64,000 bases of DNA, from assembly GCA_044892505.1 (NCBI GenBank), contig CM097882.1:100254001-100318000 (forward strand), in the 5' to 3' direction. A model generated the notes under the pieces. It searched no databases. It was not told where the DNA came from and saw nothing but the letters and a program-made list of their open reading frames with translations. Source of the stretch: Schmidtea nova (Eukaryota). Shown one piece after another: positions 24,924-61,754 of this stretch; positions within the stretch are counted from its first letter, which is position 1, and each line of letters opens with the position of its first letter. A program made the translations under genes and the position numbers.

Positions 24924-25882
24924 TGTTAAGGATACCTAAATAACAATTTACTAATAAATAAATAAAATTACCTGGGTGAAAATCGTCATGACGAATGAGA
25001 TGGCTAATGGGAACTCAGAAAAGAAAACGGAAATAAAAAGAAATGAAAAATGAGAAAGAAGAAGCAGACAAAAGGAAGCAGACAAGGAAACAAAAACAAA
25101 GGTCAACACTAATTAATTAGTACATAGGGAAAAGGAATTTCAAATCGGGAAAAAGAAAAATAATAACAGTATGCTTATCTCGACAGCTTGTCAGAGATAA
25201 CGGGAACAAAAACAAAACAGGCCGGAGCGGCAAAAAGTAAATACAAAGTAGCCGAGTTGCTAAAGGCAGCATGGGAGTTCTAAAGAAGTATGGGAAATTT
25301 CAGAAGCAGAAATGAAAAAAAAGCAAGTGGTCACGAGTGCCGAACTGTCCGGCGTAACATGGGAGTTGCGGGAGACAAACGAACGATGACAAACTATAAA
25401 AGGCGAAAGCAATCGGAACTGAATCAGAAGTAAAATTAGAGAAGAAAAATAGAAGTAGATTCGAAGAAGCAAATCGGAGAATCGGAGAAATAAAATTGAA
25501 GAAGTGAATTTGACAAAGAAACTAGTGAATTCGAGTGTAATTGATTAAAGGCGAGTGCGTTGAATTGGAAAACGATAAAAGATTAAATTGTGTGTGGAAA
25601 ACCGAGAGCGAAATAAACTAATTGAACAGAACAAAACATTTTGATTGAATAAAGAGTCGGAGCGGTTAACAAAGAATAAAGTCAAAGCGCGGAAACAATC
25701 GAAACCAAGTACCAGTATTAAATCAAATCAGTGGTTAGTAGTTGTTGTTTTCTAGGCAATATAAAAGTGAGCTATTCTTCACGAAGTGTCGTAATAAGCT
25801 CGTATAATTGTCAAAAGAGTTTATTGAATTGGTTGTGAAAATTAAATCGTGTAAATCAGTCTAATAATCAATAAAGTTTGTG

Positions 25883-28110
25883 AGTAGGTAGATGTGTGGA
25901 GTCAAACACAAAGAAATGAGTCATAATGCGTGGGCGGAAAATTTTAAACAAAGAACTTTTTTTTTCGGAACCCCCCCCGGGGGGGTCAATTTTTTTTTTT
26001 TTTTTTTTTTTCGCGCCAAAAATTTTTGAATTTTTTTTTTTGAAAATTTTTTTTTTCGCGCCAAATTTAAATTTGAAAATTTTTTAACACAAAATTTTTT
26101 AACACAAATTATTTTTTTTTTTAACACAAAATTTTTTAACACAAAATTTTTTAACACAAAATTTTTTAACACAAAATTTTTTAACACAAATTTTTTCAAC
26201 ACAAAATTTTTTAACACAAATTTTTTCAACACAAAATTTTTTAACACAAAATTTTTTTTTTTTTCACAAATTTTTTTTTTAAAAATTTTTTTTTTTTTTT
26301 AAACAAAGAACTTTTTTATGCGTGGGCGTTAAAAATTTAAACAAAGAACTTTTTAATGCGTGGGCGTAAAAAATTTTTAAACAAAGAACTTTTTCGAGGC
26401 CCCCCCGGGGGGGTCAATTTTTTTTTTTTTTTTTTTTCGCGCCAAAAATTTTTGAATTTTTTTTTTGAAAATTTTTTTTTTTCGCGCCAAATTTAAATTT
26501 GAAAAATTTTTAACACAAAATTTTTTAACACAAATTTTTTTTTTTTAACAAAATTTTTTAACACAAAATTTTTTAACACAAAATTTTTTAACACAAAATT
26601 TTTTAACACAAATTTTTTCAACACAAAATTTTTTAACACAAATTTTTTCAACACAAAATTTTTTAACACAAAATTTTTTAACACAAATTTTTTCAACACA
26701 AAATTTTTTAACACAAAATTTTTTAACACAAATTTTTTCAACACAAAATTTTTTAACACAAAATTTTTTTTTTTTTCACAAATTTTTTTTTTAAAAATTT
26801 TTTTTTTTTTTTAAACAAAGAACTTTTTTATGCGTGGGCGTTAAAAATTTAAACAAAGAACTTTTTAATGCGTGGGCGTAAAAAAATTTTTAAACAAAGA
26901 ACTTTTTCGAGGCCCCCCCGGGGGGGTCAATTTTTTTTTTTTTTTTTTTTTCGCGCCAAAAATTTTTGAATTTTTTTTTTGAAAATTTTTTTTTTTCGCG
27001 CCAAATTTAAATTTGAAAAATTTTTAACACAAAATTTTTTAACACAAATTTTTTTTTTTTAACACAAAATTTTTTAACACAAAATTTTTTAACACAAAAT
27101 TTTTTAACACAAAATTTTTTAACACAAATTTTTTCAACACAAAATTTTTTAACACAAAATTTTTTAACACAAATTTTTTCAACACAAAATTTTTTAACAC
27201 AAAATTTTTTAACACAAATTTTTTCAACACAAAATTTTTTAACACAAAATTTTTTTTTTTTTCACAAATTTTTTTTAAAAATTTTTTTTTTTTTTTAAAC
27301 AAAGAACTTTTTTATGCGTGGGCGTAAAAAATTTAAACAAAGAACTTTTTAATGCGTGGGCGTAAAAATTTTTAAACAAAGAACTTTTTCGAGACCCCCC
27401 CCCGGGGGGGGGCTAATTTTTTTTTTTTTTTTTTTTTTTCAAAAATTATTTTTTCGCGCCAAAAATTTTTAAAATTTTTAAAAATTTATTTTTTTTTCAA
27501 ATTTTTTTTTTCCCGCCAAATTTATTATTGTAAAATAATTTTTTTTTTTTACACAAATTTTTTACACAAATTTTTTAACATAAATAATTTTAACAGAAAT
27601 ATTAGTCATCGAAAAGTTTGCAACACGCGTGCAACTTAAACAAAGACAATGCAATACATGTGCAAGACTTTGCAACACGCGTGCAACTTAAACAAAGACA
27701 ATGCAATACACGTGCAACATGAACAAAGACATTGAAAATAAAATTTATTTATAAATATATCGTTGTGTACGTGTACAAAATTTAGTTTCAAAATTATTTA
27801 CATCTGGATTATTACTCGGAATATTATTATTCATAGGAATATTATTCATTGTAATATTATTCATCGGAATACTAGTATTTGTCGGAATATTATTCTTTGG
27901 AATATTTGAAATCTTCTCCAGCCGTATGGATGCCGATAACATCATTATAATTATTAATATAAATAAACTTATATAATGTAATACAATGGCTGTTTTTTCA
28001 TTTTCAACTGTTTGATTTTGGTATCTGACTTCATATTCTTTTTTAACAAAAGTTTGATTGATACATTTTAATCGTTCAACTATTTTCATCATTATTTTGG
28101 CAATCATTTT
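25883..28110 (+). repeat. Left TIR of the Polinton (2.23 kb, internal block present three times)
   Basis: Reverse complement of 43544-44808 except that the block of C/G palindrome, AACACAAAATTTTTT array and GCGTGGGCG units (about 430-510 bp) occurs three times. Confidence 0.92.
27745..28107 (-). CDS. TIR-borne copy of the C-terminal 120 aa of the membrane protein at 43325-43909
   Basis: Identical translation from MIAKIMM onward; the upstream frame stays open into an N-masked tract. Confidence 0.5.
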   Translation of the reverse strand: MIAKIMMKIVERLKCINQTFVKKEYEVRYQNQTVENEKTAIVLHYISLFILIIIMMLSASIRLEKISNIPKNNIPTNTSIPMNNITMNNIPMNNNIPSNNPDVNNFETKFCTRTQRYIYK

Positions 28111-28959
28111 AATAATATTANNNNNNNNNNNNNNNNNNNNNNNNNNNNNNNNNNNNNNNNNNNNNNNNNNNNNNNNNNNNNNNNNNNNNNNNNNNNNNNN
28201 NNNNNNNNNNNNNNNNNNNNNNNNNNNNNNNNNNNNNNNNNNNNNNNNNNNNNNNNNNNNNNNNNNNNNNNNNNNNNNNNNNNNNNNNNNNNNNNNNNNN
28301 NNNNNNNNNNNNNNNNNNNNNNNNNNNNNNNNNNNNNNNNNNNNNNNNNNNNNNNNNNNNNNNNNNATAATAACTTATAATNNNNNNNNNNNNNNNNNNN
28401 NNNNNNNNNNNNNNNNNNNNNNNNNNNNNNNNNNNNNNNNNNNNNNNNNNNNNNNNNNNNNNNNNNNNNNNNNNNNNNNNNNNNNNNNNNNNNNNNNNNN
28501 NNNNNNNNNNNNNNNNNNNNNNNNNNNNNNNNNNNNNNNNNNNNNNNNNNNNNNNNNNNNNNNNNNNNNNNNNNNNNNNNNNNNNNNNNNNNNNNNNNNN
28601 NNNNNNNNNNNNNNNNNNNNNNNNNNNNNNNNNNNNNNNNNNNNNNNNNNNNNNNNNNNNNNNNNNNNNNNNNNNNNNNNNNNNNNNNNNNNNNNNNNNN
28701 NNNNNNNNNNNNNNNNNNNNNNNNNNNNNNNNNNNNNNNNNNNNNNNNNNNNNNNNNNNNNNNNNNNNNNNNNNNNNNNNNNNNNNNNNNNNNNNNNNNN
28801 NNNTTATAATAATAATAATAACTTGTAATAAAAATATTCAACACATAAAAAATATTCAACACATTAAAAATATTGTCATAGTTTTTATTGATTGCGCAAT
28901 ATTATTAACAATCAAAAAATAAGGCCCTAAAGAGGACCATTATTTCATTCTCAATCTTT

Positions 28960-29400
28960 TTTCATATTTCTTTTCGGTTTTCATATTTCTTTTCGGTTTT
29001 CATATTTCTTTTCTGTTTATCTTTTCGGTTATCATATTTCTTTTCGGTTTTTCGTTTCGGTTTTCATATTTCTTTTTAGTTTTGATATTTCTTTTATGTA
29101 TGTTCTTTTCGGATTCTTTTCTGTTTTCATTTCAGTATTATTTTCTGTTTTCACAATCTGTTTTTCTGATTTCCTTTCTGTTTTCATAATAAATTTTAAC
29201 AATTGAATTTCCTTTCTGTTTTCTTAAATCTAAAATCTAAATTTTTAAAAACTGATTGTTACAATCAAAAATTGTGGCCCTGAAGAGGGCCGATTGTGCA
29301 TTCGCATATCTTTCTGGTTTTTTTTTTTGATTTTCTGTTTTTGGATTTTTTGATTTTTTTTTTTTTGATTTTCTCTTAATTTTTTTTTTCTTTCCATTTT
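28960..29400. repeat. Low-complexity 17-18 bp repeats (TCATATTTCTTTTCGGTT-like) downstream of pPolB
   Basis: Tandem degenerate copies visible from 28962. Confidence 0.7.
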
Positions 29401-29422
29401 CTTATAGATTTATATCTAGCCA

Positions 29423-29498
29423 TCATCGCAAATAATTATGCTCCGGCTCTTCGTAAAATAAATACGGATCATCTTGTAGCTGTTGTTGTAGCTGCTGC

Positions 29499-29532
<34 letters not shown>

Positions 29533-32500
29533 GCTGTTGTTCATTCTGAGGCTGCTCCGTATCTAAAATACTGTTACCCCCTCTATAATGGCCATATGCC
29601 AGGCTTTTATTTTTCCCTACCCAATTGCGCTTGTCATCTCTACAGCTTAATGCCCGCTTATTATTTTTCACACTAAAAAGCTGGTGATTTTTTGATGTTA
29701 TCCTAAACTGGGGGACCGTATAGATCTTATTATTTAAATAGCAATCGAGATACGACTGATGAGTTAGTCCAGTATCCTTCATGCATATCCCCTTAGCCTT
29801 CATACTTTCCTCATCACCCATTAAGCTGTAGCATTTCGGTCTAAGAAACACCCACTCTTTATACAACATCCCTTTACTCTCGTCTTTGAACTTTCCAATG
29901 ACAGAGTCAAGGTTTCTGTTGTATAAAGGATCCATAGGGTCATAATTAGAGGTGTCCAGCAAGCAATCATTAACCATAGCCGGTAAAAGAGTGTCAAGAC
30001 TACAGTTTTTGACCTCAAGAAAAAAGGAGTCAGTATCCCCAGCGACGATGTTAATCTTACAGTTGTAGTCGTCACGATATTTTTGTAACTCTACATACTG
30101 TAGCTGGTACATTCTTAGTTTGGATAAATCCAGTACAGTTTGACCGATGTAGCTGGGTCTATCCAAACATACTGACTCCTTTCGCAGCAAGACAGAAATA
30201 AGGTCATTATCGATTTTATTTGTTTTACGAAACGTAGGTTTCGAGCAATAAGTTATTAATTTTTCGGCATTATTACATAGTCGTAAATTAATACGTTTTT
30301 TTAAATTTTCAACAGTCTTGCCGTAAAGACTGTTGTTTAATAATTTATAAAAATCTCGATCTAATTTAGTTGTTGACGCCGATCGTAACGTCGTATTTGT
30401 GTTGATATAATTTAAAAAAATTTTATCTTGATTAAATTTTATGGCCCTGTGGACCTTTGTTATGACGATGCCTAATTTAAGAAATAGTTGCAGAAGCCGC
30501 CAATGAAGAACATAGTTCTTCTTTGGATTATGCGTGAGCATCAGCTTCTCAACCTTGGATCCCGGTGCACACATCTTTTCAGCGGCAACTGGAAGATCAT
30601 CCAGTTTGTCGTGAATTGATGCCGGTATCTCCAAATCCACTTCTATGGTGTAGCCATAATGAAGTGCATCTAGATCAACCGATGTGCACTGACAAACGAT
30701 TTCATTTAATAAGTGGTCATCTGTGACCCATTCAAAATTAGAACAAGGTAAAGGTTGGCTTAAGGCCCATCCATACAAGTTATTGATGTCTATGTAAAGC
30801 AATGAGGTATCCGGGCTTGTTTTTACATAGTGTTTGTTAATAAAAGTTAGTCCGCCACGGATACCGCCCTCGAAAAAATTGTACATTTCCATATCGGTGA
30901 GGAGCTCGATTGGAGATTCTAAGGTCATTAAGGCAGAACTCCAAGATAAACTTGGAATCCCGAGGAAATTCAGAGGTTCAAGTCTATTATGATTAATAGA
31001 CTTGAAACGAAATTGCTGGAAAAAATCAGCAAGTAAAAAAACGTCCAGTTTTAAATAAACCATCATGTAATCAAAAAGTGAATTACATGATGTTTCAATC
31101 CATATTCTTTGCGCCATTGCATATTCTTCTGGCTTTACATCTTTCCAGATCGGCGGGAGAGCTAAAGTAGAATGTAAAACTTCTAAGGAAGTTGCAGCAT
31201 CATAGGGAAAAATGCCCTTGGCTGTAATTATAGTGCCTTGAAATTCTGATTCGGTGAGTGGTAAGGAAGTAAGAGTTTTGACAGCATTATTTAAAGACTC
31301 GCTGACGAATTGGTATGAGTCTATGAATTTGACAGTTAAAGAGTCAATCCTAGCAAAAAGACTAAGAAATTTCTCACTTGTTAATGGAATACAGCTAATA
31401 TTCCATTTACGATATTTAGATAAACCATATTTTAGAATATGGTGTAGATCATACCCCTTTAAATTGTGAAAGATGACAGGAAGGGTATGTCTAATCTGCC
31501 TATTTTTATTACATTCTGAGCAAGCTGCTCCAAGAAAAAGACCGGTGAAATGGTCATGGTCCCTAACAGGTCGACATAATAGCTTTTTGCATAAATAACA
31601 AATTGTGCTGTTGTTAAATTCAATTTGTTGCTCATGGCTAATTATCATAGTTTTATTAGCGTTTTTATAATAGTACGGCGTTACTATGTGGCGACTTATA
31701 AGCTCTATTTCATTTAGAAAATCCTCTACACAATTAAGGCCTGCAAAAGATTTATAGGATTTTTGTCCAGTAAAGTTGTTAATTAATAACAAACCCGCAG
31801 AAATAGGCAAATGCTTTTGGAAATACCTGGTGTCCGCAGGTAAGATTGCCTCAAAGTCGGCATAAATAACAAAGGGAGGAGTCACTGTTTTGCGCCATTC
31901 AGTAAATTCCAGCATCTTATTTTTTGGTAAAGTGTACAAAGTTGTACCAGTTTGATTCTTATCACAAAGACCCCTATGCCTATTGAAAACCTCATCATTT
32001 CGAAAACCATTTAAGCACCTCGGACACCATTTACTACAAATCCTTACCGAAGTTATCGCGCTATTACGGCAATTCAAAAAACGATTCAAATCAAAGATGC
32101 CTATATAATGAAAAGTTTTTCTGTTTTGAAGTAATAACAGATTTATTGGGGTACCACCTACAACTTTTGACTTGTAAATTAAGTCAATAAAAGGATGTTT
32201 AAGGACAATATCCTCATTTTCATCAATAAGATCTAATAAGGGATTTTCATCATATGACAAAACATTGACGCTATAACCTGGGTTTTGTCTCTCAAATTTA
32301 CTTATATTACCAAGTCTCATAGGCATATCATTGGGGTCATAATTCAATTGTGAAAGATTATAAGAGGAAGGAATGCAACGAGTTTCATTTGTTAAACTGT
32401 CATATTTAATTATAGAAAGGAAACTATATAAAAAACAAAAGTTGTCCTGATTTACCACATTAACTAAACATTTCTTTTTCCTTAAAGATTTCGGAGTTTC

Positions 32501-34787
32501 GATAAACTGACTTCCGCTTAATCGAGTTATTTCAGAGTATCTGGTCAAGACAAAGCTAATGTATTCAACTTTTGAGATAGTCCAGTTACTACCTTTCTCA
32601 TTTATCGCGATGATTTTTTCATTTAAAAGAGCAATACCTTCCTCAATGAAGGTATCACTCCAGACCCTGGCAGAATTTGAGATAACGAACGATTGTAATT
32701 CATCGTCCTTCTCAAATTCCACCTTCAAACAGAATTGAATTTTAACAGTTTTATATTTGTTAACTTGAAAAGTTAATTTTTCTAAAAGAATTGTCGGTAC
32801 TGAGACCGTTTTCAAATTAAGATTTTCCACGTCCATTTTAACAATTATATGATTGTTATTTAGGTCATTGACGATTTCGACGGCACCATATCCGATTTGG
32901 TTATTATTTAAATTATTTAAATTATTTACATTATTATTTAAATTTTCATCATCACTGATGACTATTAATTCATCATCAGTGAGATCTATTATTTGAATTT
33001 TAGTAGGAACTGAATCCGGAATTTTAATATGTTTTCGTTTATTATTTGTATTATTTATATTATTGATATTATTTGTATTATTTATATTATTTGTTTGATT
33101 ATTATTTGTATTATTTATAGTATTATTTAGATTATTTGTATTATTTATAGTATTATTTAGATTATTGTTATTTATATTATTATTATTTATAGTATTATTT
33201 ATAGTATTATTTATAGGATTATTAATAAAATTAGGAAAAAGTTCCTTAAATAAAATTTTCTTAGACGGTTGAAACTGTGAAAGATGGCTACAGTGCCTAT
33301 TAAAGAAGTCTATATATGGGCAAATTTCGATAAGTTTACAGGTGGGGCATATGAGGTGGGTAACAGTATTATATGGCAACGAGTAGTATTTTTCCATAAT
33401 GATATGACAATCATTATGGAACCTACTGTTGCAAAAATTTTTGTAGGTTGAACCTGAATTTTAAAATAAAAAAATAATTAAATAAATTATCAATATAAAT
33501 AATGAAAATAAAAAATAATATAAAGTAAAATGGATATTTCATAATATAATTATATAACATAAATATCTTTATTGAAAAATCAAAATTTCATAATATAATT
33601 CTATTTCCTAAATGTTTTTATTGAAATATCAATATTTCATAATATAATTCTATTTCCTAAATGTTTTTATTGAAATATCAATATTTCATAATATAATGAT
33701 ATAACATAAATATTTTTTATTGAAAAGTAAAATAGACATTTCATAATATAATTCTATAAGATAAATGTTTTTTATTGAAAAGTAAAATGGATATTTCCTA
33801 ATATAATGGTATAAGATAAATGTTTTTTATTGAAAAGTAAAATGGATATTTCCTAATATAATGTTATAACATAAATGTTTTTTAGTGAAAATGGATATTT
33901 CATAATAAAATTCTAGTACATAAATGTCTTTTAACAAAAATTATAATTCATATTTCATAATATAATGCTATAACATAAATACTTTTTATTGAAAATGGAT
34001 ATTTCATAATATAATGGTATAACATAAATGTCTTTTAACAAAAATTATAATTCATATTTCATAATATAATGCTATAACATAAATACTTTTAATATTATAC
34101 TTTTAAATAATTTAGTAATTGTTTTTATAAACCATTACTAAATTATTTAAAAATAATATATTAAAAGTATTATTTATATTAAAAAGTTAAATTAAAAAAG
34201 TTAAATTATAAATCAATAATGATTAATACATACATTTGTTCTTCCCATAAATTGGGGCATCCAGATTAATAGGAGCATTTCTCGGGACGTCAGCAACTTT
34301 CGGGACGTCAGCAACTTTCGGGACATCATCATGATTCGGGACCTCATCGTCCATATCGACATTTCTCATAATATTCATATTATCTGAAACATTTATAATG
34401 AAATAATATTAATAAAATAAATAAATAAATTACAATTAGATCGTCCCATTGACGAAAATCCACCCATCCTTGATGTTGATGCTTCGGCATTGTTGTTGTT
34501 GTAGTTGTTACTATTATTAACTAAAGTAATAGTAAAATAATAATAAAAAATAATAATAAATATTACCCAAAAATCTAATCCCATTATTCTCATTAATACG
34601 AATCCTTGGAGCAACATTCATATCTATCGATTGATCGTCTTGTCCCATCATAACATGAGCGATATTTCGCGCTATATTCATTTCTGAAATAATAATAATA
34701 ATAATAAAAAATAAAAATAAAAATAATAAATTTACCATTTACACCTCCTGCGAGATGTCTTTCCTTTACGATTCGGATATTGTTCAT
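29423..34787 (-). CDS. polB: Protein-primed family B DNA polymerase with terminal-protein region; predicted five exons, 1478 aa (the single ORF 29423-33397 gives 1324 aa)
   Basis: Exo II FHNLKGYD, motif A YIDINNLYG, motif B KLLNNSLYGK, motif C GDTDS, HDHFTG..CN zinc insert, poly-Q tail. Predicted exons 34787-34736, 34683-34567, 34520-34434, 34383-34234 and 33453-29423 join in frame at GT-AG sites. The polymerase call is firm; the 5' exons are a prediction. Confidence 0.9.
33525..34110. repeat. Degenerate minisatellite of about 55-60 bp inside the predicted fourth polB intron
   Basis: About ten copies of ATATTTCATAATATAAT..TATAACATAAATG..TTTATTGAAAA. Confidence 0.85.
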
Positions 34788-34854
34788 AATTGTTTGATAT
34801 TAATTTAAAATTGATTTAAAAAATTTGTAAGTAAAAAGTGACGAAATAATGCAA

Positions 34855-35060
34855 GTATATACTATATAAAGATGAATTTTATTAACCGACCAATCAGAAT
34901 CGAGATAGGATAGGCAAATACATGCACACATACTGCACACACAATGTACCTTTGTTTATGTGTGTTTGACGTCACGATATTGCTTTGTATCGTGACAAAG
35001 ACATGATATGACGTGTTTCATCATGTGCTTATCACGCACTGATCACGCACTGGTCATGTC
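34855..35060 (-). promoter_or_regulatory. Predicted promoter of the spliced polB gene
   Basis: TATA-like 34855-34870, CCAAT box 34890-34894, CRE TGACGTCA 34967-34974, ACAAAGACA 34995-35003. Confidence 0.55.
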
Positions 35061-35148
35061 TTTATGATTAAAATAATAATATTTAATATTAATAATAATA
35101 AAAATAATAATATTTTAAAAAATAATAATAAAAAATAATAAAATACAT

Positions 35149-35550
35149 TTATTGCTTTAAATAATCTACAACAGCAGACAAGCACCCTTTATAGGCACAC
35201 ATACAATGGTCTTTATAGGGACATGAAATGTTTTCAGGAACATATTCAACTTCTTTATAAGTATATTTGATTAATCTTAATTTCGGGAAATACTTCTTCA
35301 AAACATACATCTTTTCATTATCGGTAACATAGAAAATAGCTCCTTTATCTGTGATATCATCCATTATACATTTTGGGCAAAAATAATCTTGTCCTTCAAA
35401 CGATTCTATACGATCAGGCCATAAAGATAAATCACTGTATATATAATACTGGGGTGTGAAAATATTATTAACATTCATAATACATAATTCCTTAATTGTT
35501 GTTCCACCCATTTCATTATAACCATAAAAATCGATAAAATAACAAGACAT
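35149..35550 (-). CDS. 133-aa protein resembling small DEDD/DnaQ exonuclease-like Polinton ORFs (probably non-catalytic)
   Basis: YFIDFYGY...IKELCI N-terminus, FYVTDNEK..LKKY and a C-terminal Cys/His cluster CPYKDHCMCA; recognised from memory of motifs only. Confidence 0.5.
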   Translation of the reverse strand: MSCYFIDFYGYNEMGGTTIKELCIMNVNNIFTPQYYIYSDLSLWPDRIESFEGQDYFCPKCIMDDITDKGAIFYVTDNEKMYVLKKYFPKLRLIKYTYKEVEYVPENISCPYKDHCMCAYKGCLSAVVDYLKQ

Positions 35551-35582
35551 TTTTTCAAATAAAATATATTAAAATAAATTGT

Positions 35583-35960
35583 TTATAACATTGATTTTAA
35601 CCATGCAAGGCAATGTTCACCACAAGTGATTGTTAAAGGATGCTGATATCGAATTCTATTATACACAATAGGTTTACCAATAGTTTGAAGTTTTCGAACA
35701 AGTAAATTCGGATAATAATATCCAAAGGGATCAAATACATGTATTCGATCTGGTTTCACATAAACTGCAATCCAATGTTCACCGCCCAACGTAGATGTCT
35801 GAGTATTTACAATGATGGCTTGATTCATTTTCAAATAAGGTATTTTATCCAGAGGAAATACTCCAATAAATTGATTTCCCAATAGTTTTTTACCTTGATG
35901 TCATACCTGAATAGAACTAATTAAAAATAAATAACTAATCAAATAAAAATCTTACTCCAT
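35583..35960 (-). CDS. Adenain-like cysteine protease (49-nt intron 35907-35955; one-base frame discrepancy at 35886-35891)
   Basis: Catalytic His (GEHWIAVY), Asp (FDPFG), Gln and Cys (YQHPLTITCGEHC); ATGGA|GTAAG...TTCAG junction. Confidence 0.9.
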
Positions 35961-36034
35961 GATGATAATAATAATAATAATAATAATAACTTTGGTCATT
36001 TATACTGTTTAAACCAATAATGTTTGAGCTCTGC

Positions 36035-37255
36035 TCAAACTAATATTGTTCGATTGGCAGTAATTTGTACTTCATTTTCAAAAACTCCATATATAATTAC
36101 ATGAACCGGTTCATCAATGGGTTTTGCAAACTTTATATCGAGTCGTAAATTCCCGTTTTGAGGGATTTGGCTTTGATTCAAATCGAAATCGGGAGCGAGC
36201 ACAAATGTAAAGAATGGATATTTACTTTTAAATTCATCCAGACTTATACCACAATTCAAGTTTTTATCCAAATATCCTAGATTTCGGACAAGACTTTGCA
36301 TATATGTGGCACTAAAATTATCATTTTCAAAATCTTGAGTATAAGTTTCTCGAAAATCGGTATTTTTCGATAACGATAATGAAGTCACATTGAAATGTTT
36401 GAATGTAGATGCAGATTCAGCATATGATCCATTATATTGATTTTCAGTTTGAAAAGCCACAAGAATGAAATTAGGCATTCTTCTATCTCCAAATATTTGC
36501 TCCTTGTAAAATGACGATGCCCCTTTACCGATTGCAAACGATACGATTTCTTTAGATTTTAATGGATAAATTGCATGTTTACTATTTAAACCAATTTGAT
36601 GACCGGCCAAAACTGAAGATTCACATCGAACTCTTCTTACCATTAATTTTGCATCAACTATTTGGATTATAGGTTTCCCAGCTGCAGATTTCAATGATAA
36701 TGAAGATTCAGATCTCTTCAATCTAATATGTACATTAACTCCGGGAAGTAAGTATTTTGGTTGATCCATAAAATCGAGTTGTAATGATGAACACATGTTG
36801 AAAAGTTTAGATCCCTTGATCCATTTTTTCCGATCGTCAGATGAACCATATCCCATTGGAGTAAGACATGTTTCTTTTGTATCGCTAGTATAATTTAAAA
36901 CAGTTTCGATTATGGCCTTGTGTGCATATGTATTGTTTCCACCCTCGATTTTTATATTATTAAATCCAAGAATCGCATCTTTGAAAAGAGTATGAAATAG
37001 GTAATTATTAGGCACTACATCACTCGCATCAACTAATTTATTTTTATCTTTATCTAGAACCTTGACAGTAACGAATAATAAAGTATCGTTCAAATCCAAA
37101 TATTCGGTTGCCGATCCATTAATGTAAAATTCAACATTATTTCTACTATCTGTAATAGAATTCATTGGAAAAACATCTTCAAACACCCCATATTCAATAA
37201 CTGCTTGAGGTGATGGTCGATCAAAAAGACATAATTCAGATTTACCGCAAATCAT
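36035..37255 (-). CDS. Double jelly-roll major capsid protein (hexon-like), 406 aa
   Basis: CGKSELCLF..P.Q N-terminus, EYLDLNDTLLFV, NNYLFHTLFKD, KYLLPGVNVHIRL, GNLRLDIKF, typical of Polinton major capsids. Confidence 0.9.
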   Translation of the reverse strand: MICGKSELCLFDRPSPQAVIEYGVFEDVFPMNSITDSRNNVEFYINGSATEYLDLNDTLLFVTVKVLDKDKNKLVDASDVVPNNYLFHTLFKDAILGFNNIKIEGGNNTYAHKAIIETVLNYTSDTKETCLTPMGYGSSDDRKKWIKGSKLFNMCSSLQLDFMDQPKYLLPGVNVHIRLKRSESSLSLKSAAGKPIIQIVDAKLMVRRVRCESSVLAGHQIGLNSKHAIYPLKSKEIVSFAIGKGASSFYKEQIFGDRRMPNFILVAFQTENQYNGSYAESASTFKHFNVTSLSLSKNTDFRETYTQDFENDNFSATYMQSLVRNLGYLDKNLNCGISLDEFKSKYPFFTFVLAPDFDLNQSQIPQNGNLRLDIKFAKPIDEPVHVIIYGVFENEVQITANRTILV

Positions 37256-37617
37256 TCTTCAAATATAGTTCCATGACCTTTCATTCGTTTGTTTATACGT
37301 TTTCTAATCTTTTTACGTCTTGGTCCTACCGGTTCAGGTTGCGGTTCGTTTTTGGAAAACATATTTGAAATTGACGGTATCGCCTTGGATACAGCCTCCA
37401 TAGCATTCGTTTTCAATGTAGGCAAAATTTTCTGATCTTTCATTATAACGTCTTTAGCAGTTTTCATTCCAAAACTGCCCAGTCGCTTAAGTAGTGGAAG
37501 TGCAAATCTTCCAATAGTTTTCAACCAACCTGATCCATACTGTTTACCTATAAAATACGGTAATTCGCCACCAGTTTGGCTATTACTGTACAATGAAATT
37601 ATATCGGGATTACTCAT
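37252..37617 (-). CDS. Small virion core / membrane-active precursor protein, 121 aa
   Basis: QTGG and QYGSG protease-site motifs followed by an amphipathic helix WLKTIGRFALPLLKRLG; basic C-terminus; ATGA overlap with the capsid gene. Confidence 0.75.
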   Translation of the reverse strand: MSNPDIISLYSNSQTGGELPYFIGKQYGSGWLKTIGRFALPLLKRLGSFGMKTAKDVIMKDQKILPTLKTNAMEAVSKAIPSISNMFSKNEPQPEPVGPRRKKIRKRINKRMKGHGTIFEE

Positions 37618-38662
37618 GATGTTTTCGAAAATGTAGAGTCAAATGAGTTTTTGAATTTTTTGGAAAGTTTATTAAATTACCTCTATCATCTCGGATATTT
37701 ATTTCTATATTGTTTATACAGGATGTTGAAACAGATAAATACATTGGATTTTCAACTTGTATTTGAACAACCTCATCCTGTTCATATTTTTCAATCCATA
37801 CAGATTTCAACATGGGAACTAATGAATCACCGACAATTATAGGATTGACTATATTACTGTAAATGAACATTTGCTGATGAAGTTTAATTATTTTTGGTTT
37901 ATATATTCCAACAGTGAAGCTTCCGTCTTGAGCATATGTAGCTTTCGCTAATCCCAATGTTTTTACAAGGTTATTGTCAAAAGTTATTTCGCTAACATCT
38001 GCATTCAAACTGAATTTGAAGTAACTATCATCTACCAATTCCAGAGATTTAAAAATACTTGCACAATTTAGAATAAAATATGATTGCAATTCATCCAGTT
38101 TCGATATGTATAAATTATCGGTAAATGTATGTATAAATGCAGAATCAGCCTTGTACTCCATCTTTATTCTAATTTTTTCCGTTAATGGACCATCTATACC
38201 ATAATATGGTAACGGTATCTTGTATGTATCTGTAGGACTTACAATACTCTGTTTCGTTAATCCCATTCTTTTTGCCATTGCCAAAGTATCAAAAGTTATA
38301 GTGAAGGGAAAATTATCACAGGTAAAATAAATAGAATGTCTATCGCTACTGATTTGAGCAATATCATCGGCAGGATTAGATATATCAACTTCACAAAATT
38401 GATTGTTGATAATCAAATTTTTATATTTTGTATGTAAAGTTTTCTTTTTGTACCGAATTTCTGATTTACTGTAAAATGGAAATGGATTATACACAAATGT
38501 AAAGTCTAAGAGAGCGACTTCCCAAATCCCGTCCAAATACATTGGATTTTGGAGATTGACCATGAAATTACTGGAAGTATTATCTGGATGTATATCTGGA
38601 CAACTGTTGCTAGGTAGAATCATATAAAAATTCATTTTACTAGGTTTTTTGATGATATCCAT
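37610..38662 (-). CDS. Minor capsid protein (penton-like); likely start at Met10 (38635)
   Basis: FYMILPSNS..HPDNTSSNF..L..P..L.G.WEVAL N-terminus and MFIYSNIV.P.IVGD..VPML C-terminus, typical of Polinton minor capsids. Confidence 0.88.
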   Translation of the reverse strand: MDIIKKPSKMNFYMILPSNSCPDIHPDNTSSNFMVNLQNPMYLDGIWEVALLDFTFVYNPFPFYSKSEIRYKKKTLHTKYKNLIINNQFCEVDISNPADDIAQISSDRHSIYFTCDNFPFTITFDTLAMAKRMGLTKQSIVSPTDTYKIPLPYYGIDGPLTEKIRIKMEYKADSAFIHTFTDNLYISKLDELQSYFILNCASIFKSLELVDDSYFKFSLNADVSEITFDNNLVKTLGLAKATYAQDGSFTVGIYKPKIIKLHQQMFIYSNIVNPIIVGDSLVPMLKSVWIEKYEQDEVVQIQVENPMYLSVSTSCINNIEINIRDDRGNLINFPKNSKTHLTLHFRKHHE

Positions 38663-39678
38663 GATGGTTCTTTATATCCATGCCACTTTACATAGTATTG
38701 TTTATCCTTACCCACCATTTTAGATTTCAGGATTTTTTGAATTCTAAATATTGTCGGTGGAGGAATAACTTGTAATTCTTGTTCGTAGAATTTCCCACTG
38801 ATTATATTGTTATCAGAGTCACAAATAGTATACATGACAGGATTCTGCACTGTGTTGACTTTCGATATTTGATATACCTCATCACTCCAATTATTATCAA
38901 AATTTTTAATGAATGGCGATGCACTAATCTTGCTAATTCGAACATGATCACCAATTTTATATTTTGGTTTCTTTACTTTTACTTCACTCACAATATTTTC
39001 AGTATCAACTACTTCTGCCGGTTTCCTGTCATTTATACCCCGATGAGCACTATGATTATAACTATGAATCAATTGAGGTAAAACATTAATCCAGGTTTTA
39101 TTGCCTTTAAAAACAAAGTATTTTTTCAATCGATCACGCAAAGTTCGATTAAATCTCTCGACATGAGCGGCTTTGAATTGCGAGAATACCGAATAATGAT
39201 TTATTCCCTTGATAACTTCCTTGACTTTACTGTTGTAAAATTCCTTTCCTAAAAAATATTAAAAATGTATAAATTTAAATTAAAATTTACCCAAATCGGT
39301 TTGTAAATTAGTTGGCCGATCCTTTTTCATCATTGTCTTGATAGCGATTGCCATGTCATTAGCTGATTTCGATTTTACTCCAATTGCTCGAGCAAATCTA
39401 CTGTAAACATCAATACATGTTAAAATATACTTGTACCCCTTGTTAATAGCGGAATACGGAATCATTTCCATCAAATCCATTTGCCACAAATCATTGATTC
39501 TATATGTTTTATATGCTCGAGTTGGAAACCGTTTCAACATCGGTTTGTTTAGACTGTATGCAAGTTGCCCCGATAACCAACTTTGTGTCTGTTGTTTCGA
39601 CTTCTGTGCTTTTTTCCTTAGCTTTTCGACTCCACCGAAACCGGCGTCGTCTTTTGGGTTCGTCCAGATCTTCTCCAT
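38632..39678 (-). CDS. int: Retroviral-like (rve) integrase with C-terminal chromodomain, two exons, 334 aa
   Basis: WQMDL, spliced LQTDLG|KEFYN, AAHVERFNRTLR, chromodomain IQKIL..YYVKWHGY; exons 39678-39291 and 39248-38632 total 1005 nt. Confidence 0.92.
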
Positions 39679-39733
39679 TACAACAAGAAGATTTAAAGTT
39701 TAAATTTAAATTAGGTAATGATTGACCCATTGT

Positions 39734-40279
39734 TTATGACCTTTGTCCCAATAAACCAGCACCTCCCAATAATGATAAAGCTAGTGGTAATAATGCGGCA
39801 ATAAATCCTCCTTGTTGTTTATATATTATTTTTCGCATAAGTTTTCGATTTTTTGTTTTTACTAGCGACAACAATGGTTTCTTATGCTTGTTCAAAACAC
39901 GTCGATTAGATGGACTGAGATGCATTTTACCTCGTACTACTTTAATTAAAATAGTGAGTAAATCATCGATAACGTAATTAGGAAACGATTGAAGAATACC
40001 CATTCTTCTAGCGGATGGGGCTTTAAGCAATGCATTAAAAAACGGAAAACTCCGATGATGTACTTGTTTAGCATTTGATTTCAAATTAATTGGAATTTGA
40101 TTTTGTTTGGGAAAATTATCCATAATTAGTTTTTTCGATGGTGTATAACTTGTTTTTGAAACTGATTTTGAAACGGATTTCTTTGTCGATTTCTTTCTTC
40201 GACCTGCTTTCTTACCTATTTTCATTGATTTTCGAGCTTTTATCAATCGTTCAAACTTTACTCGAGATTTCATTAACAT
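39734..40279 (-). CDS. Basic core protein with adenovirus pX-like C-terminus, 181 aa
   Basis: K/R/S-rich N-terminus; QQGG|FIAALLPLALSLLGG resembles the pX MRGG|ILPLLIPLI motif. Confidence 0.75.
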   Translation of the reverse strand: MLMKSRVKFERLIKARKSMKIGKKAGRRKKSTKKSVSKSVSKTSYTPSKKLIMDNFPKQNQIPINLKSNAKQVHHRSFPFFNALLKAPSARRMGILQSFPNYVIDDLLTILIKVVRGKMHLSPSNRRVLNKHKKPLLSLVKTKNRKLMRKIIYKQQGGFIAALLPLALSLLGGAGLLGQRS

Positions 40280-40299
40280 TATTATTACTGTAAATCAAT

Positions 40300-40923
40300 T
40301 TAACTTTGTTTATAAACCATGGCTCCTTCCTTGTTAAAAATATCAGTTCTAACCCTTAAATCATCACTGCATTGTTGAGTAAAATCCAAGAAAATATATC
40401 CATGAGGAGATTTTGTAGCATCCTGAAAGGCTTCAATCAAAAAGTTACGATTTGAAGGATAAGCTTGTCTTGCCAGAAAATCAATAACTGTTGCATCTCT
40501 AGGATTTTTAAAAACAACAAGATATTGAACATTTAAATTACGAGTTCGATGACTACCGCCCTGATGAAATAAATTCTGAGTTATAAAAATAACAGTAACA
40601 CCTTTATGTCTACTGATTTTCGTAAATAAATTATTAAAATCCTTTTCTTTATTTGCTTCTTGATACAAATCGTCAATGATAATCACATCACCTTGTTTTA
40701 ATCTAGATGACCAGTTTTTATCGAAACCTTTTATGATTGTCATTTTTATTTTACAAAACTGATCTTGTGTCATTCCACTTTCGTCGTCAGCACCCCTATG
40801 CCAATAAATATTATTAAATTTCGACTTGAATAATTTCGATTGCAATAATTTACAAACAAATAAAGTTTTTCCACTCCCGCTCGGACCAACAATTTGAAAC
40901 ACTGCATCATTTCTTAATTCCAT
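40300..40923 (-). CDS. A32/FtsK-like genome packaging ATPase, 207 aa
   Basis: Walker A GPSGSGKT, Walker B IIIDD, ISRH and ITQ motifs. Confidence 0.93.
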   Translation of the reverse strand: MELRNDAVFQIVGPSGSGKTLFVCKLLQSKLFKSKFNNIYWHRGADDESGMTQDQFCKIKMTIIKGFDKNWSSRLKQGDVIIIDDLYQEANKEKDFNNLFTKISRHKGVTVIFITQNLFHQGGSHRTRNLNVQYLVVFKNPRDATVIDFLARQAYPSNRNFLIEAFQDATKSPHGYIFLDFTQQCSDDLRVRTDIFNKEGAMVYKQS

Positions 40924-41016
40924 ATTTAAAATTTATATTTTCTTAATATTATTGATTATATTTGTTTTAAATACATGTTCTCAAAGTAATTATTTCATTT
41001 AAAAATATTTTCAGTA

Positions 41017-41484
41017 ATGATTAGAAACATTAATTACAAGGGTAAGACAGATGTATCACACATGAAATTTCCAAAAGGTAAACCCCAGCAAATTGTAGAT
41101 CGAACTGGAAAATATCCCATAATATACTTTAAAACAGGAAGATATAGAATAATGGGATGCAGGGAATTTATTAGTGAGGAACAAGTTGAGTTTTACGATT
41201 TAAAGATACAATCGATAACTGTAACTGCGGATTTAGGATTTATTTGTAATTTGAATGAATTATCTAAATTGATACCGTGTGTTTACGAGCCAGAATTATT
41301 TCCAGCTTTGAGGTATACCAAATATAATCCCATGTGTGTAAACATATTTCCAAGTGGGAAATTAGTCATATTAGGATTAAAAAACAAAGACTATAGTACT
41401 ATAGTTGATGATATTATTTACGATATAAAATCAATTATAGAAGATAAAGCCTTTGTTGATTTCATACTAACATGTGACTCATGA
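41017..41484 (+). CDS. TATA-binding-protein-like protein, 155 aa
   Basis: YEPELFPALRY and NIFPSGKLVILG match TBP repeat 2 (YEPELFPGLIY, LIFVSGKIVLTG); IRNINYKG..IYFKTGRYRIMG matches repeat 1. Confidence 0.82.
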   Translation: MIRNINYKGKTDVSHMKFPKGKPQQIVDRTGKYPIIYFKTGRYRIMGCREFISEEQVEFYDLKIQSITVTADLGFICNLNELSKLIPCVYEPELFPALRYTKYNPMCVNIFPSGKLVILGLKNKDYSTIVDDIIYDIKSIIEDKAFVDFILTCDS

Positions 41485-41509
41485 CTGCAATATCGATGCA
41501 TTAGAAATG

Positions 41510-41625
41510 CACGATTCTGATTGGCTCTGTGTGTATCGATAGAATAAAGACATGTTGTGCATGCTTCATTCTGATTGGTTCATTGTGTGTGTTTGAAATC
41601 ATGTGTGTTTCTTTGATATATATAC
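41510..41625 (+). promoter_or_regulatory. Predicted promoter: two inverted CCAAT boxes and TATA
   Basis: CTGATTGG ending at 41524 and 41578; TATATATA 41617-41624; CGATTCTGATTGG is shared exactly with the polB promoter. Confidence 0.55.
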
Positions 41626-41659
41626 TATGAACAATCTCACATAGTTTATATTCACAATT

Positions 41660-42295
41660 ATGTATCTTACGCAAACTTTAATTAAAAGCCGTAAGGGTTT
41701 TAATTTTTAATTTTTCATATTTAATATTATTTTAGAAAAACTAATGAACGTTATCTATCGAAAGCTGGAGGAGCTATTCCCGAACCTGATGCCGGCTCTC
41801 GTCTACACGGCTCCGGAGATGTTCCCATATAAAATTATGGTCCTGACTGGTATCGATATAAACCAGATTGTGCTCGACCACATGACGAGCCAGAATACAG
41901 ATCTCCCAATGGTACCCGAACACATTATGTGCGCATATCAATGCGGAAGTTGTGTTGAAAGAATACGACAATTCAACATCTGGGTTTTGCGAAACTCGTT
42001 GAAATTATTCGATGTCCAGCAAATGGATAAAATCGATGAGGAGGAAGAAGAGCAAATCAAGGAAACCTGGCCCAACTCTACTCCGGAGCCGATTGATGCC
42101 GATGATCAATCAAAAAATGATTGCTCAATGGAACATGCACCATCTCTAGATGGCCCGTATCCATCGGAATCACCTGATTGTTCAGAATCTCCACAATCAC
42201 CTGATTGTGCAGAATGCCATCGACAGGCTGATGGTGTTGAAGAAGAGGAGGAAGAAGAAGAAGAAGAAAAAGAAAAAGAAAACGACGAACAATAA
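41660..42295 (+). CDS. Hypothetical protein with CxxC and acidic tail; two exons (45-nt intron 41691-41735)
   Basis: ATG at 41660, donor C|GTAAGG and acceptor TTTAG|AA join in frame to ORF 41744-42295; poly-Glu C-terminus; a homologous relic at 49170-49400. Confidence 0.7.
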
Positions 42296-42841
42296 TTTGA
42301 TTTGCATGTTTAATGTATTTAGTTTTTTTTTATTCTTTTAGTTATGTCATTTTTGTTATTTTAGTATAATAAAAGATTTTTAATTATTTTAGTTTTTTAT
42401 TCATTTTAGTTTTTGTTTTCATTTATTTAAATAATAGTAATAGTTTTTTTTTTATTAAAACATTTTTAATAGTAGTAATTTTTATTAACTAAATATATAT
42501 CAAGTTAATAGTTTTTTATTAAATACTAATTAATATGAAAGTGTTTTATGAAAGATAATAATTTGTGAAATAAATAAATAAATAAATAAATAACAACATT
42601 AGTAGCAGAACATTGTGATCAGAACCCTGGAAGCAGAATCTCTTCTGTGATGGTTTTGATATACAAAAAACTTCATACTAAACATATACTAAATAATTTA
42701 ACATGCACGCATACAACAAAGACATTGCAATACATGTGCATAGTGTGTGCAAAACGAATGCATGAATATGATTGGACAAAGACATCTAGTCATCAGTATA
42801 AATACAAAGACATTTTATAAAATATTGTCACAATTTATAAA

Positions 42842-43258
42842 ATGAATTCAAGAAAACAAAATTTAGATATAAGCGAAGAAAAAATATATCAGACTGAGGT
42901 AAAACCAGTCCAGATGTACTACGACAGCCGACTTTATTTTTTGGTTAATGAAATACCGTATCGATTATCATTTCCGGTAAAGTTAACAAAATCTTTATAT
43001 GACAGTCTTGCTGTAATTATTGCCAAGGAAGATATTATCGCATTAAATAGATTATTTTCAAAGATGAATGTTAATTTGACATGTAAAGAAACCATGTACA
43101 TCAATAACAGAAAAACTCGGTTTCATGATGCGTTTCAAACAATTGATTTCATGGATCAAGAACATTGGTTCGTTACCGTTATTATTCAAGGGTACAAGAT
43201 TGATAAAAAAGATGTTGTTACTCCAATTTGGAGAGTTGACAATGCAAGATATGCATAA
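42842..43258 (+). CDS. Hypothetical 138-aa protein, possibly an OB-fold ssDNA-binding protein
   Basis: Intact ORF with CCAAT and TATA upstream; beta-strand-like C-terminus VTVIIQGYKIDKKDVVTPIWRV. The function is a guess. Confidence 0.6.
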   Translation: MNSRKQNLDISEEKIYQTEVKPVQMYYDSRLYFLVNEIPYRLSFPVKLTKSLYDSLAVIIAKEDIIALNRLFSKMNVNLTCKETMYINNRKTRFHDAFQTIDFMDQEHWFVTVIIQGYKIDKKDVVTPIWRVDNARYA

Positions 43259-43324
43259 TTGTTTTTTAATAAATATTTTTTAGTATGAACAATTTTAGTT
43301 TTGATATTAGTTTTTGTTTTTAAA

Positions 43325-43909
43325 ATGAAATTAATTATAGTTATTTTATTATTATGTGTTCACAATACTGAAGGAGAACAAGCTTTGGAAGATTGTCAAT
43401 CATCCCATCCGTTTCGAAAACAAGATAGTACTTGTGCGAGTTATAATGATATATGTCTTTACTCAAACCTTGAATGCAGTCAAATAAAATTACAATGTAA
43501 TCAATGTCCTTCCAAAAATAATGTGATTAATAATGACATTGAAAAAATGATTGCCAAAATAATGATGAAAATAGTTGAACGATTAAAATGTATCAATCAA
43601 ACTTTTGTTAAAAAAGAATATGAAGTCAGATACCAAAATCAAACAGTTGAAAATGAAAAAACAGCCATTGTATTACATTATATAAGTTTATTTATATTAA
43701 TAATTATAATGATGTTATCGGCATCCATACGGCTGGAGAAGATTTCAAATATTCCAAAGAATAATATTCCGACAAATACTAGTATTCCGATGAATAATAT
43801 TACAATGAATAATATTCCTATGAATAATAATATTCCGAGTAATAATCCAGATGTAAATAATTTTGAAACTAAATTTTGTACACGTACACAACGATATATT
43901 TATAAATAA
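43325..43909 (+). CDS. Predicted type I membrane protein (signal peptide, six-Cys ectodomain, TM, NNIPM-repeat tail)
   Basis: MKLIIVILLLCVHNTEG signal-like start, Cys-rich segment, TM AIVLHYISLFILIIIMMLSASI. Confidence 0.72.
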   Translation: MKLIIVILLLCVHNTEGEQALEDCQSSHPFRKQDSTCASYNDICLYSNLECSQIKLQCNQCPSKNNVINNDIEKMIAKIMMKIVERLKCINQTFVKKEYEVRYQNQTVENEKTAIVLHYISLFILIIIMMLSASIRLEKISNIPKNNIPTNTSIPMNNITMNNIPMNNNIPSNNPDVNNFETKFCTRTQRYIYK

Positions 43910-44808
43910 ATTTTATTTTCAATGTCTTTGTTCATGTTGCACGTGTATTGCATTGTCTTTGTTTAAGTTGCACGCGTGTTGCAAAGTCTTGCACATGTAT
44001 TGCATTGTCTTTGTTTAAGTTGCACGCGTGTTGCAAACTTTTCGATGACTAATATTTCTGTTAAAATTATTTATGTTAAAAAATTTGTGTAAAAAATTTG
44101 TGTAAAAAAAAAAAATTATTTTACAATAATAAATTTGGCGGGAAAAAAAAATTTGAAAAAAAAATAAATTTTTAAAAATTTTAAAAATTTTTGGCGCGAA
44201 AAAATAATTTTTGAAAAAAAAAAAAAAAAAAAAAAATTAGCCCCCCCCGGGGGAGGGGGTCTCGAAAAAGTTCTTTGTTTAAAAATTTTTTACGCCCACG
44301 CATTAAAAAGTTCTTTGTTTAAAAAAAAAAAAAAATTTTTTAAAAAAAATTTGTGAAAAAAAAAAAAATTTTGTGTTAAAAAATTTTGTGTTGAAAAAAT
44401 TTGTGTTAAAAAATTTTGTGTTAAAAAATTTTGTGTTGAAAAAATTTGTGTTAAAAAATTTTGTGTTAAAAAATTTTGTGTTGAAAAAATTTGTGTTAAA
44501 AAATTTTGTGTTGAAAAAATTTGTGTTAAAAAATTTTGTGTTAAAAAATATTGTGTTAAAAAATTTTGTGTTAAAAAAAAAAAAATTTGTGTTAAAAAAT
44601 TTTGTGTTAAAAAATTTTCAAATTTAAATTTGGCGCGAAAAAAAAAATTTTCAAAAAAAAAAATTCAAAAATTTTTGGCGCGAAAAAAAAAAAAAAAAAA
44701 TTGACCCCCCCCCCGGGGGGGTTCCGAAAAAAAAGTTCTTTGTTTAAAATTTTCCGCCCACGCATTATGACTCATTTCTTTGTGTTTGACTCCACACATC
44801 TACCTACT
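43544..44808 (-). repeat. Right TIR of the Polinton (1,265 bp)
   Basis: Reverse complement of the left end; inner boundary lies inside the membrane-protein gene. Confidence 0.92.
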
Positions 44809-45080
44809 TTTGTGTTGTTAAAAGTGTTATTGGGGTCAATTAAAAACACGTTTTGGAGTCAGATATTTGATTGGTAACTTTTACCATTTCACCAACTACC
44901 CCATAACACAACAATTTTGTTTTGTTTATAATTTAATTCATTTTTTCTTTAATGATTTTTTCTTTATCTTGTTTAATATTTTTAATTTTTTTTTTGATTA
45001 TTAGATTTACCAATAACCGAATATTTAGGTTGAACAATGACTTTTTGAATGAAACCTTTTTTTTAATTAAATTTACGATT

Positions 45081-60700: not shown

Positions 60701-61754
60701 TCTTTTTGCATTTTCACTATCGTTGTACCTAAGAGGACAGGGTTAATGTCACTTGTATTATTATTTGAAGTGAACTGGTTGATGTACTGCGTATCACTTT
60801 CATCGGCTGACGATGTCTGATCTGCGAATGTTCCGTGTATCGACTTTGTCAAAGATCTGCAGGCTTTCGCAAAATGATTCATTCTGTCGCAATTCGTACA
60901 CTTCTTTCCAAATGCCGGGCATTTCTTTGGCTCGTGTATTCGATCACAGTAATGACACCTTTGATTTCCTTTCTCTTCGAATTTCCTTGATGTTCCAAGG
61001 TTTGATCTCTTCTTTTTAGTGAAATTGATTTCATCGGTCGTAGAGGTAATTGTAGGTTTTGTTCCATGCTGGAGGGATATGAACGTGGATATCTCCTCAT
61101 ATGTTTGCATTTGTGCGAGGATCTCGTTGCATGTTGGAATCCCAGCACTCATTTGCAGCAAAATCTTTTCCTTAGCATTGATGTCATATATTCCCGATAT
61201 CAATGCCATGAGGAGCATATCCTCGTTGGGGTCAGTTGATTCCTTCAATTTCTTGAAGTCACAATATATAGCAGCTTTCTTGAGTCTGATATAGAAATCT
61301 GCTAATTTCTCTTTCGGTTCCTGTCTTAGCTGATAAAATCTTGCTCTCTCAGCTATTACAACTTTGCTTTTCGGCTGTGTGTGGTTCAATAGCATGGCTT
61401 TGATCTCGCTGAACGTCATCTCCTCTAGCAATTTGGGAGAAGCCATATGTTGGATTTTCGTGAGTGCCTTCAGTCCACATACAGATAGGAAGTTGTCCAT
61501 GATTTGTCTTGATTTGTCACTGTCGACCCACTTATTGGCTCGACTCATCGCACCAAAAGCGGTTAACCATATTTCATCATTGATGTTGTCATCTAGATTC
61601 AATTCTTCCAATCGTGACGCCATTGTTATAATGCACGCATAAGAATTCTTAATATTCAAATTATATTTATTATAAAATGATAAGTTATTTAAACAAAATA
61701 TTAAAACGATAATTAACACGATTATTGTTAATTATCATTGACAATATTATGATA
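57753..61754 (-). mobile_element. Intact compact Ty3/Gypsy (Mag-like) retrotransposon (element 2), 4,002 bp
   Basis: Identical 131-bp LTRs (57753-57883 and 61624-61754), PBS TGGCGTCACGA next to the 5' LTR, short purine tract GAAAGGA before the 3' LTR. Confidence 0.96.
57892..61623 (-). CDS. gag-pol: Single gag-pol polyprotein, 1243 aa
   Basis: Two knuckles CHYCDRIHEPKKC and CTNCDRMNHFAKAC, protease DTGAS, RT YQDD, RNase H TTDAS, integrase H-H-C-C and D,D,E (HMDW, VSDN, SAER); no internal stops. Confidence 0.95.
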   Translation of the reverse strand: MASRLEELNLDDNINDEIWLTAFGAMSRANKWVDSDKSRQIMDNFLSVCGLKALTKIQHMASPKLLEEMTFSEIKAMLLNHTQPKSKVVIAERARFYQLRQEPKEKLADFYIRLKKAAIYCDFKKLKESTDPNEDMLLMALISGIYDINAKEKILLQMSAGIPTCNEILAQMQTYEEISTFISLQHGTKPTITSTTDEINFTKKKRSNLGTSRKFEEKGNQRCHYCDRIHEPKKCPAFGKKCTNCDRMNHFAKACRSLTKSIHGTFADQTSSADESDTQYINQFTSNNNTSDINPVLLGTTIVKMQKDTGASVSIISSKMWEDMGRPKLDKTRRKLEAYDGHIMQCHGSFLTTVEWEKQVLPVTITVIQSMKDFGLIGMDILQQTRHGILQCQITKTTESQVLPAIKGIKASMDLIDDAKPMFCKARPIPLALENKVNDELIRLQRLGVISPCTKPVLNSSPVVWVKKSNGDLRLCVDFKVHINKKIKTDAYPIPNVETIFSKLKNVNKFAKLDLTSAYWQIELDDKAKEISCINTTKGMFIVNRLQMGMKNASAIFQRTMEQILKDIKGILIYQDDVLIYAENEESLRNRLQTVKLRLKEKKVTINQAKTIELTDSVSFLGFEISSKGITPDKSLVSKINNIKEPTCKEEVESFIGLINYFGRLIPNFSDKTRVINELKKKGVKFDWNKECSNQFKALKQEISTYPVVQPYSLEKEATLTTDASKHAIAAVLTQDGHPVIYISRTLSAAEKNYSNIEREALAIVWSISRLQHFLLGRKFKVNTDHQPLQSLFGSESPIPRRTSNRISRWAMLLMQYDYEIYYVMGKQIPHADALSRLKFIDEKEANEEIKTKNTLSVFTVQFSEGLLNASEVRLETSLNKLARDIMRRIKKGNWSKCSQSEMPFKKISDRLTIEDGLLYHGLRLFIPPKLRKKCIDIAHNETHSGLQSTFYRLKASSWWPGIHGDIDNFIRSCVICKKLHPRPEKSIHKWPEAKPFQRVHMDWAHIKEVGDVLIIVDAGSGWIEAFKTSDKTSKSVITCLRTVFTRFGVPECIVSDNAQEFTSHELNAWINSQGAMKLESPAYFPRSNGSAERAVQTVKKALKGWNELRTHCDFNTFLQKILFHHRISSTSRGKSPAEIVFRRQPRAPIMSKFQQGQDIWYKASEDVEPKEGEFIMTKGNNTSYITIESQNDNVTLVSNNQISDRRQIQEVKDAQLTQEKVPAESDIRRSGRHRSKHRCGCC

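Follow-up and report, generated by a model that had tools for sequence, protein, structure and literature searches.

The locus described here raises the question of why the catalytic core of an integrase gene, carried by a Maverick/Polinton element of Schmidtea nova, is interrupted by a short segment containing stop codons, and whether this segment is a switch on integration, the mark of a dead gene or an ordinary intron. By the window we mean the whole stretch of 64,000 nucleotides that was analysed. The integrase gene lies on its minus strand and begins with an ATG at 39678. Exon 1 (39291..39678; 388 nt, that is 129 codons plus one nucleotide) encodes two acidic residues, D68 and D128, and exon 2 (38632..39248; 617 nt) encodes the third acidic residue, the C-terminal region and a chromodomain. 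Between the two lies a putative spliceosomal intron of the GT-AG type (39249..39290, minus strand), which contains two in-frame TAA codons and reads, from 39290 to 39249, GTAAAT...TTTTTTAG. The initial annotation had described this 42-nt stop-containing insert, and had proposed that its removal gives a D,D,E integrase of 334 amino acids with a chromodomain and that its retention ends the protein in DLGKF after 132 amino acids. All of this was borne out: the joined exons amount by arithmetic to 334 codons, with the acidic triad placed by motif at D68, D128 and E160 in the spliced numbering, and a straight read-through of the unspliced frame reaches a TAA after 132 amino acids, ending in DLGKF, with the second in-frame TAA downstream. 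The annotation had also put the interruption two codons past the second Asp, between the Gly and the Lys of QTDLGKEF; the distance stands but the junction needs correction, as the insert splits the codon of Gly130 in phase 1 and does not fall on the Gly/Lys boundary. The triad is presumably catalytic, as in retroviral integrases.

The Pfam profile rve matched residues 60-130 of the X read-through sequence (E = 1.2e-07; 32.4 bits against a cut-off of 32.6) and the profile Chromo was matched with E = 4.6e-05, both slightly below the curated cut-offs, and no Pfam domain was found in residues 1-59. A total of 2,375 integrase homologues were found in the protein collection. The motif TDxGxEF is contiguous in all 120 of those listed, and exactly the 14 codons of the insert are missing from the 39 displayed in the alignment, in a set that consists of intron-blind gene calls and is hence biased to intronless genes. 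With the motif contiguous in every listed homologue, comparison with the family marks the 14 codons as an insertion. None of the same 120 was nearly identical to the spliced product, the best being 66% identical.

The gene belongs to a whole Maverick/Polinton copy of 18,926 bp (18.9 kb; 25883..44808, no strand assigned) with termini AGT...ACT, flanked on the left (25877..25882) and on the right (44809..44814) by the 6-bp target-site duplication TTTGTG. In the left terminal inverted repeat, the arm that matches best (27364..28110; 747 nt) is 96% identical to the right arm (43544..44290), and beyond it tandem arrays extend out to the terminus. Within the repeats (25900-27400 and 44290-44760) we observed arrays of a 15-bp unit, three in the left repeat and a single one in the right, together with C8-G8 hairpins, and each terminal repeat holds one duplicate of a 194-aa ORF. 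The element shows the inverted repeats, the AG...CT termini and the 6-bp duplication by which Mavericks/Polintons are recognised; matching 6-bp duplications were also found in two of three other element copies examined, the third showing one end only. The family is young and abundant: from 1,162 candidates, 40 matches were scored and all 40 were identical across 351 bp. The Maverick load of the genome is unusually heavy, at least 8,500 integrase sites in 1.25 Gb.

The gene content of the element is also that of a Maverick. On the minus strand there are a polymerase-like ORF of 1,324 aa (29423..33397), putatively identified from polymerase-like motifs seen by eye, for which profile and structure searches gave no Pfam DNA_pol_B_2, NCBIfam or PDB match, an adenovirus-type cysteine protease gene (Peptidase_C5; 35583..35960; Pfam E = 4e-06) and an A32-like packaging ATPase (40300..40923; Pox_A32 E = 5e-07). 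Two further minus-strand genes gave no direct match in profile searches: one is a likely major capsid protein (36035..37255), whose Atlas features score 0.98 to clusters with the DJR-like PF21738 in 15-30%, with a weak recognition of 2203 that is under the 2300 mark, and the other a likely minor capsid protein (37610..38662), by position and synteny only. Adjoining the ATPase on the plus strand is a gene for a TBP-like (TATA-binding) protein (41017..41484; Pfam E = 7e-14), which may have an additional exon upstream and which is retained at about 46% identity in metagenome relatives (L069, L070, L233, L271 and L272). We noted more AT-rich GT-AG intron candidates on the minus strand, at 34684-34786, where a small ORF begins at 34786, and an acceptor-like site at about 33400-33480 (minus strand), upstream of the polymerase ORF. 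Elsewhere in the window there are a single-ORF rhodopsin-family receptor with srw-like matches (12471-13733, minus strand), a MULE transposase (14608-16380, plus strand) and an LTR retrotransposon pol gene (57892-61623, minus strand).

We asked how the insert has behaved across copies, the initial annotation having named its presence in related Polintons as a check. It is present at the same integrase position in about 8,500 sites of the genome and absent from relatives outside the clade. With 28 exact flanking bases we found 2,075 sites with an insert of 31-60 nt and none with one of 0-30 nt, and both the GT and the AG were intact in 2,033 of these 2,075 close copies. In the detailed sample (the first 60 copies listed by position among the 2,075) GTA and TAG are retained in every copy, and there are 43 distinct insert sequences. 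The insert length ranges from 40 to 56 nt (40 nt in 31 copies and 42 nt in 13), leaving a remainder of 1, 0 or 2 on division by three in 36, 16 and 8 copies, respectively, so that 44 of the 60 are not multiples of three. Both exons are complete and open in 35 copies, 28 of which have an intron whose length is not a multiple of three. Given these three phases with both exons intact, no read-through rule and no single frameshift rule would fit all copies. With a degenerate pattern we found 6,432 additional sites that have GTA..AG at this position; as the pattern required these letters, the sites speak for position and not for conservation of the ends. Thirty diverged loci that were fetched, including families 70-90% identical in exon protein, have introns of 40-48 nt. 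In seven of eight representatives the intron interior was no closer to that of the window than shuffled sequences were, with exon DNA 79-85% identical. The ends are kept and the length and interior drift, which is the pattern of a spliceosomal intron.

Analysis of codon variants pointed to purifying selection on both exons, the flanking exons behaving as one reading frame. In exon 2 the variants present in at least three copies comprised 66 synonymous and 27 non-synonymous changes, whereas the singletons comprised 33 and 156 (Fisher P = 2e-18), and in exon 1 the corresponding counts were 29 to 10 and 22 to 89; the exons were compared separately, and the singleton counts, which include stops, look neutral. 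The ratio pN/pS dropped to about 0.1 when subfamilies were compared; it was about 0.11 in the most diverged pairs of copies and 0.10-0.18 between the window and 18 intact 40-nt copies, and the catalytic Glu is retained in 59 of the 60 copies. Since the compared subfamilies all carry the insert, exon 2 has been under selection at the protein level after the insert arose. The comparison of DNA among copies gives strong support to the segment being a functional intron, and splicing would be the only simple route by which exon 2 could be translated across three phases.

Where the intron came from can be approached through the relatives that lack it. In trees of the exon-2 protein, from which six of the 30 fetched loci were left out for a short open frame, the 25 intron-bearing rows formed one clade among intronless rows, with ultrafast bootstrap values of 90 and 77 in two runs. 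The same genome harbours an intronless sister family, 71-74% identical, and 175 uninterrupted integrase sites in all. Eight intronless sites, taken from the first 100 listed of the 175, comprised seven old decayed relatives, with integrase pieces 57-71% identical, and one without a match. Of 78 metagenome loci, 43 have a contiguous motif, the 13 closest ones among them, and 35 gave no motif match. A search by flank pattern for family members that had lost the intron or arisen as retro-copies found none. As relatives outside the clade are without the intron, a single gain is the simplest reading and has moderate support. The insertion site reads as a proto-splice site. We also considered an origin by direct repeats, the same few bases being found at both junctions in some families, but do not count this as evidence of mechanism because consensus splice sites would mimic such repeats. 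In the sister family (L229-L231; C1 near 9.45 and 17.25 Mb) the ATPase-integrase-capsid module is often present as large inverted duplicates that face one another over all or part of a protease gene and give paired matches about 7 kb apart.

The integrase is not the only gene of the element that appears to be spliced. The protease gene has a GT-AG intron of 39 nt (35917..35955, minus strand) directly after its first five bases, ATG GA, and this intron was found at 595 sites with a length of 37-41 nt. It measures 38-40 nt in the window and in L066, L068, L229 and L231, relatives that are 55-61% identical and have it at the same place, and is older than the integrase intron; being common to those loci, it indicates that the lineage was already dependent on splicing before the integrase intron was gained. 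In the window, the protease gene is interrupted by a stop close to its 5' end (about 35900), which none of the 99 others among the first 100 copies listed has.

For comparison with the host we used myosin introns, for which a first scan was too strict (11 calls). In the scan that we retained, 33 of 41 calls were of 43-58 nt and GTAAAT was the joint commonest donor (5 of 41), in a small sample from a rough parser that made three false calls on the integrase gene and left six of 18 spans without a parse. Judged by their letters, the donor and acceptor of the integrase intron are typical of this host, and the donor in most of the diverged families is the consensus-like GTAAG. At 40-42 nt the intron is slightly below the bulk of the sampled host introns, so that inefficient splicing is possible. 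Silent-site variation in the integrase is lowest in the final 10 codons of exon 1 (0.19, against 0.23-0.43 in 15 other bins), a dip that is partly forced by the search pattern and is compatible with either kind of exonic splicing signal.

The reading that we favour, and hold to be likely, is that this is an ordinary intron, probably removed as a matter of routine by the host, and not an on/off switch. Accordingly worded as a sequence of events, a short AT-rich GT-AG insert, likely a spliceosomal intron, would have been gained once in the Maverick lineage of this host, at a proto-splice site in the integrase gene; the host spliceosome would then excise it routinely and the full 334-aa integrase would be made, and the unspliced RNA would be waste, probably degraded, and not a regulator.

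The alternatives differ in how well they withstand these data. The intron could be spliced everywhere but inefficiently, being near the lower size limit of the host, and could in this way damp integrase output with no control by cell type. Its length relative to the 33 host calls agrees with this, as does the fact that 40 nt is both the commonest and the shortest length among the 60 copies. We nevertheless consider damping of this kind rather unlikely, because the protease intron does not exceed it in length and has been retained in distant relatives, because other families have 43-48 nt at the integrase position, and because the host sample that sets the limit is small and rough.

Distinctly improbable, in our view, is the idea put forward in the initial annotation, namely that splicing is confined to stem or germ cells and that the retained form acts as a truncated repressor, as in the P element of Drosophila. 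According to PMC7776569, when the P-element intron IVS3 is retained the product is a repressor of 66 kDa, in which two thirds of the protein and the THAP DNA-binding domain are preserved, and its germline-limited splicing involves an upstream exonic silencer and piRNA control. This precedent, the position in the catalytic core (where retention would be fully inactivating), the size at the short edge for the host and the dip in silent variation right before the donor all speak for such a switch. Both introns would truncate the protein on retention, but here the truncated product is not conserved. In the 60 copies the retention stop comes at +3, 4, 5, 10, 13-14 or 20-21 codons, and three of the 30 diverged loci (L235, L238 and L262) lack any stop within 200 nt; moreover, 74% of shuffled 42-nt interiors yield a stop (P of about 0.74), and the interiors are themselves unconserved. 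The consensus-like donor of most of the diverged families also argues against a switch, and nine representatives shared no upstream pseudo-donor GT[AG]A within the final 120 nt of exon 1. The truncated form, about 130 aa long, would hold only part of the RNase H core and would lack the third catalytic residue as well as the chromodomain and the C-terminal region. With a stop whose place varies or which is absent, and with no conserved DNA-binding piece, the proposed repressor finds no support.

A dead insertion, never spliced, in a family mobilised in trans by an intronless relative, has a candidate helper in the sister family and the uninterrupted sites of the same genome. The annotation had named a never-spliced, dead integrase as one of two outcomes that would overturn its reading, the other being constitutive splicing, and the purifying selection on the exon lying behind the stop (pN/pS of about 0.11) among lineages that all have the insert makes a dead integrase very unlikely; the retention of GT and AG while the interior turns over, and a position common to families 70% identical, also count against this explanation, to which we give very little probability. 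Translational recoding by stop read-through or frameshift in place of splicing suits the window, where the insert is a multiple of three, but is hardly credible given the lengths in two other phases in 44 of 60 copies and the fact that none of the 120 listed homologues has 14 extra residues next to the catalytic Asp.

Set beside known systems, the element is alike to the Mavericks/Polintons of animals (polintoviruses, adintovirus-like) in its inverted repeats, 6-bp duplication, integrase with chromodomain, A32 ATPase and C5 protease, and probably also in its putative pPolB and capsid genes, recognised here by motifs seen by eye, synteny and a weak Atlas match. A chromodomain on a Maverick integrase is described in PMC8502044. 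Intact vertebrate Mavericks are reported to be without introns (Barreat and Katzourakis, PMC8097293), and the core genes of nematode Mavericks are called intronless, with introns in cargo genes only (Widen et al., 10.1101/2022.07.12.499685); unlike the Mavericks so described, the present element carries introns in its integrase and protease genes. Interrupted integrase genes are also found in Ginger1 DNA transposons, whose gypsy-like DDE integrase genes have 1-4 introns, mostly GT-AG (Bao et al., PMC2836005), but Ginger1 elements are cut-and-paste transposons with neither polymerase nor capsid genes. Introners, which are families of mobile introns spread genome-wide, occur in dinoflagellate Maverick/Polinton-like proviruses (PMC11957031); both cases concern Maverick-like elements, but here there is one fixed integrase site and the interiors are unrelated, as compared within integrase genes. 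Our literature search, which covered mainly the main text of open-access papers and does not imply absence from print, turned up no description of a Maverick integrase with a spliceosomal intron.

The intron is unusual only in that Maverick core genes are described as intron-free. Intron-bearing integrase sites outnumber the uninterrupted ones by about 8,500 to 175, and a bolder reading would be that the intron enabled the takeover of the genome by this clade, a virus-like element having domesticated host splicing as a control on integration. We regard it as unlikely, and a single contrast of this sort does not establish a cause. In such a scenario a core intron could mark the transcript as host-like, as with HUSH shielding, introns being said to shield RNA from HUSH in vertebrates; alternatively, integrase output could hinge on splicing controlled by cell type or by piRNAs. 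If the intron is spliced as we propose, the integrase of this element would be produced by way of the host nuclear splicing machinery, and the significance would be much greater if that splicing proved to be regulated. Surveys that score intactness by uninterrupted ORFs would call this very large and recently active clade dead. The clade also offers an unusually well-sampled case of intron gain: copies number in the thousands, the genome itself contains an intronless sister, and selection can be measured on either side of the intron.
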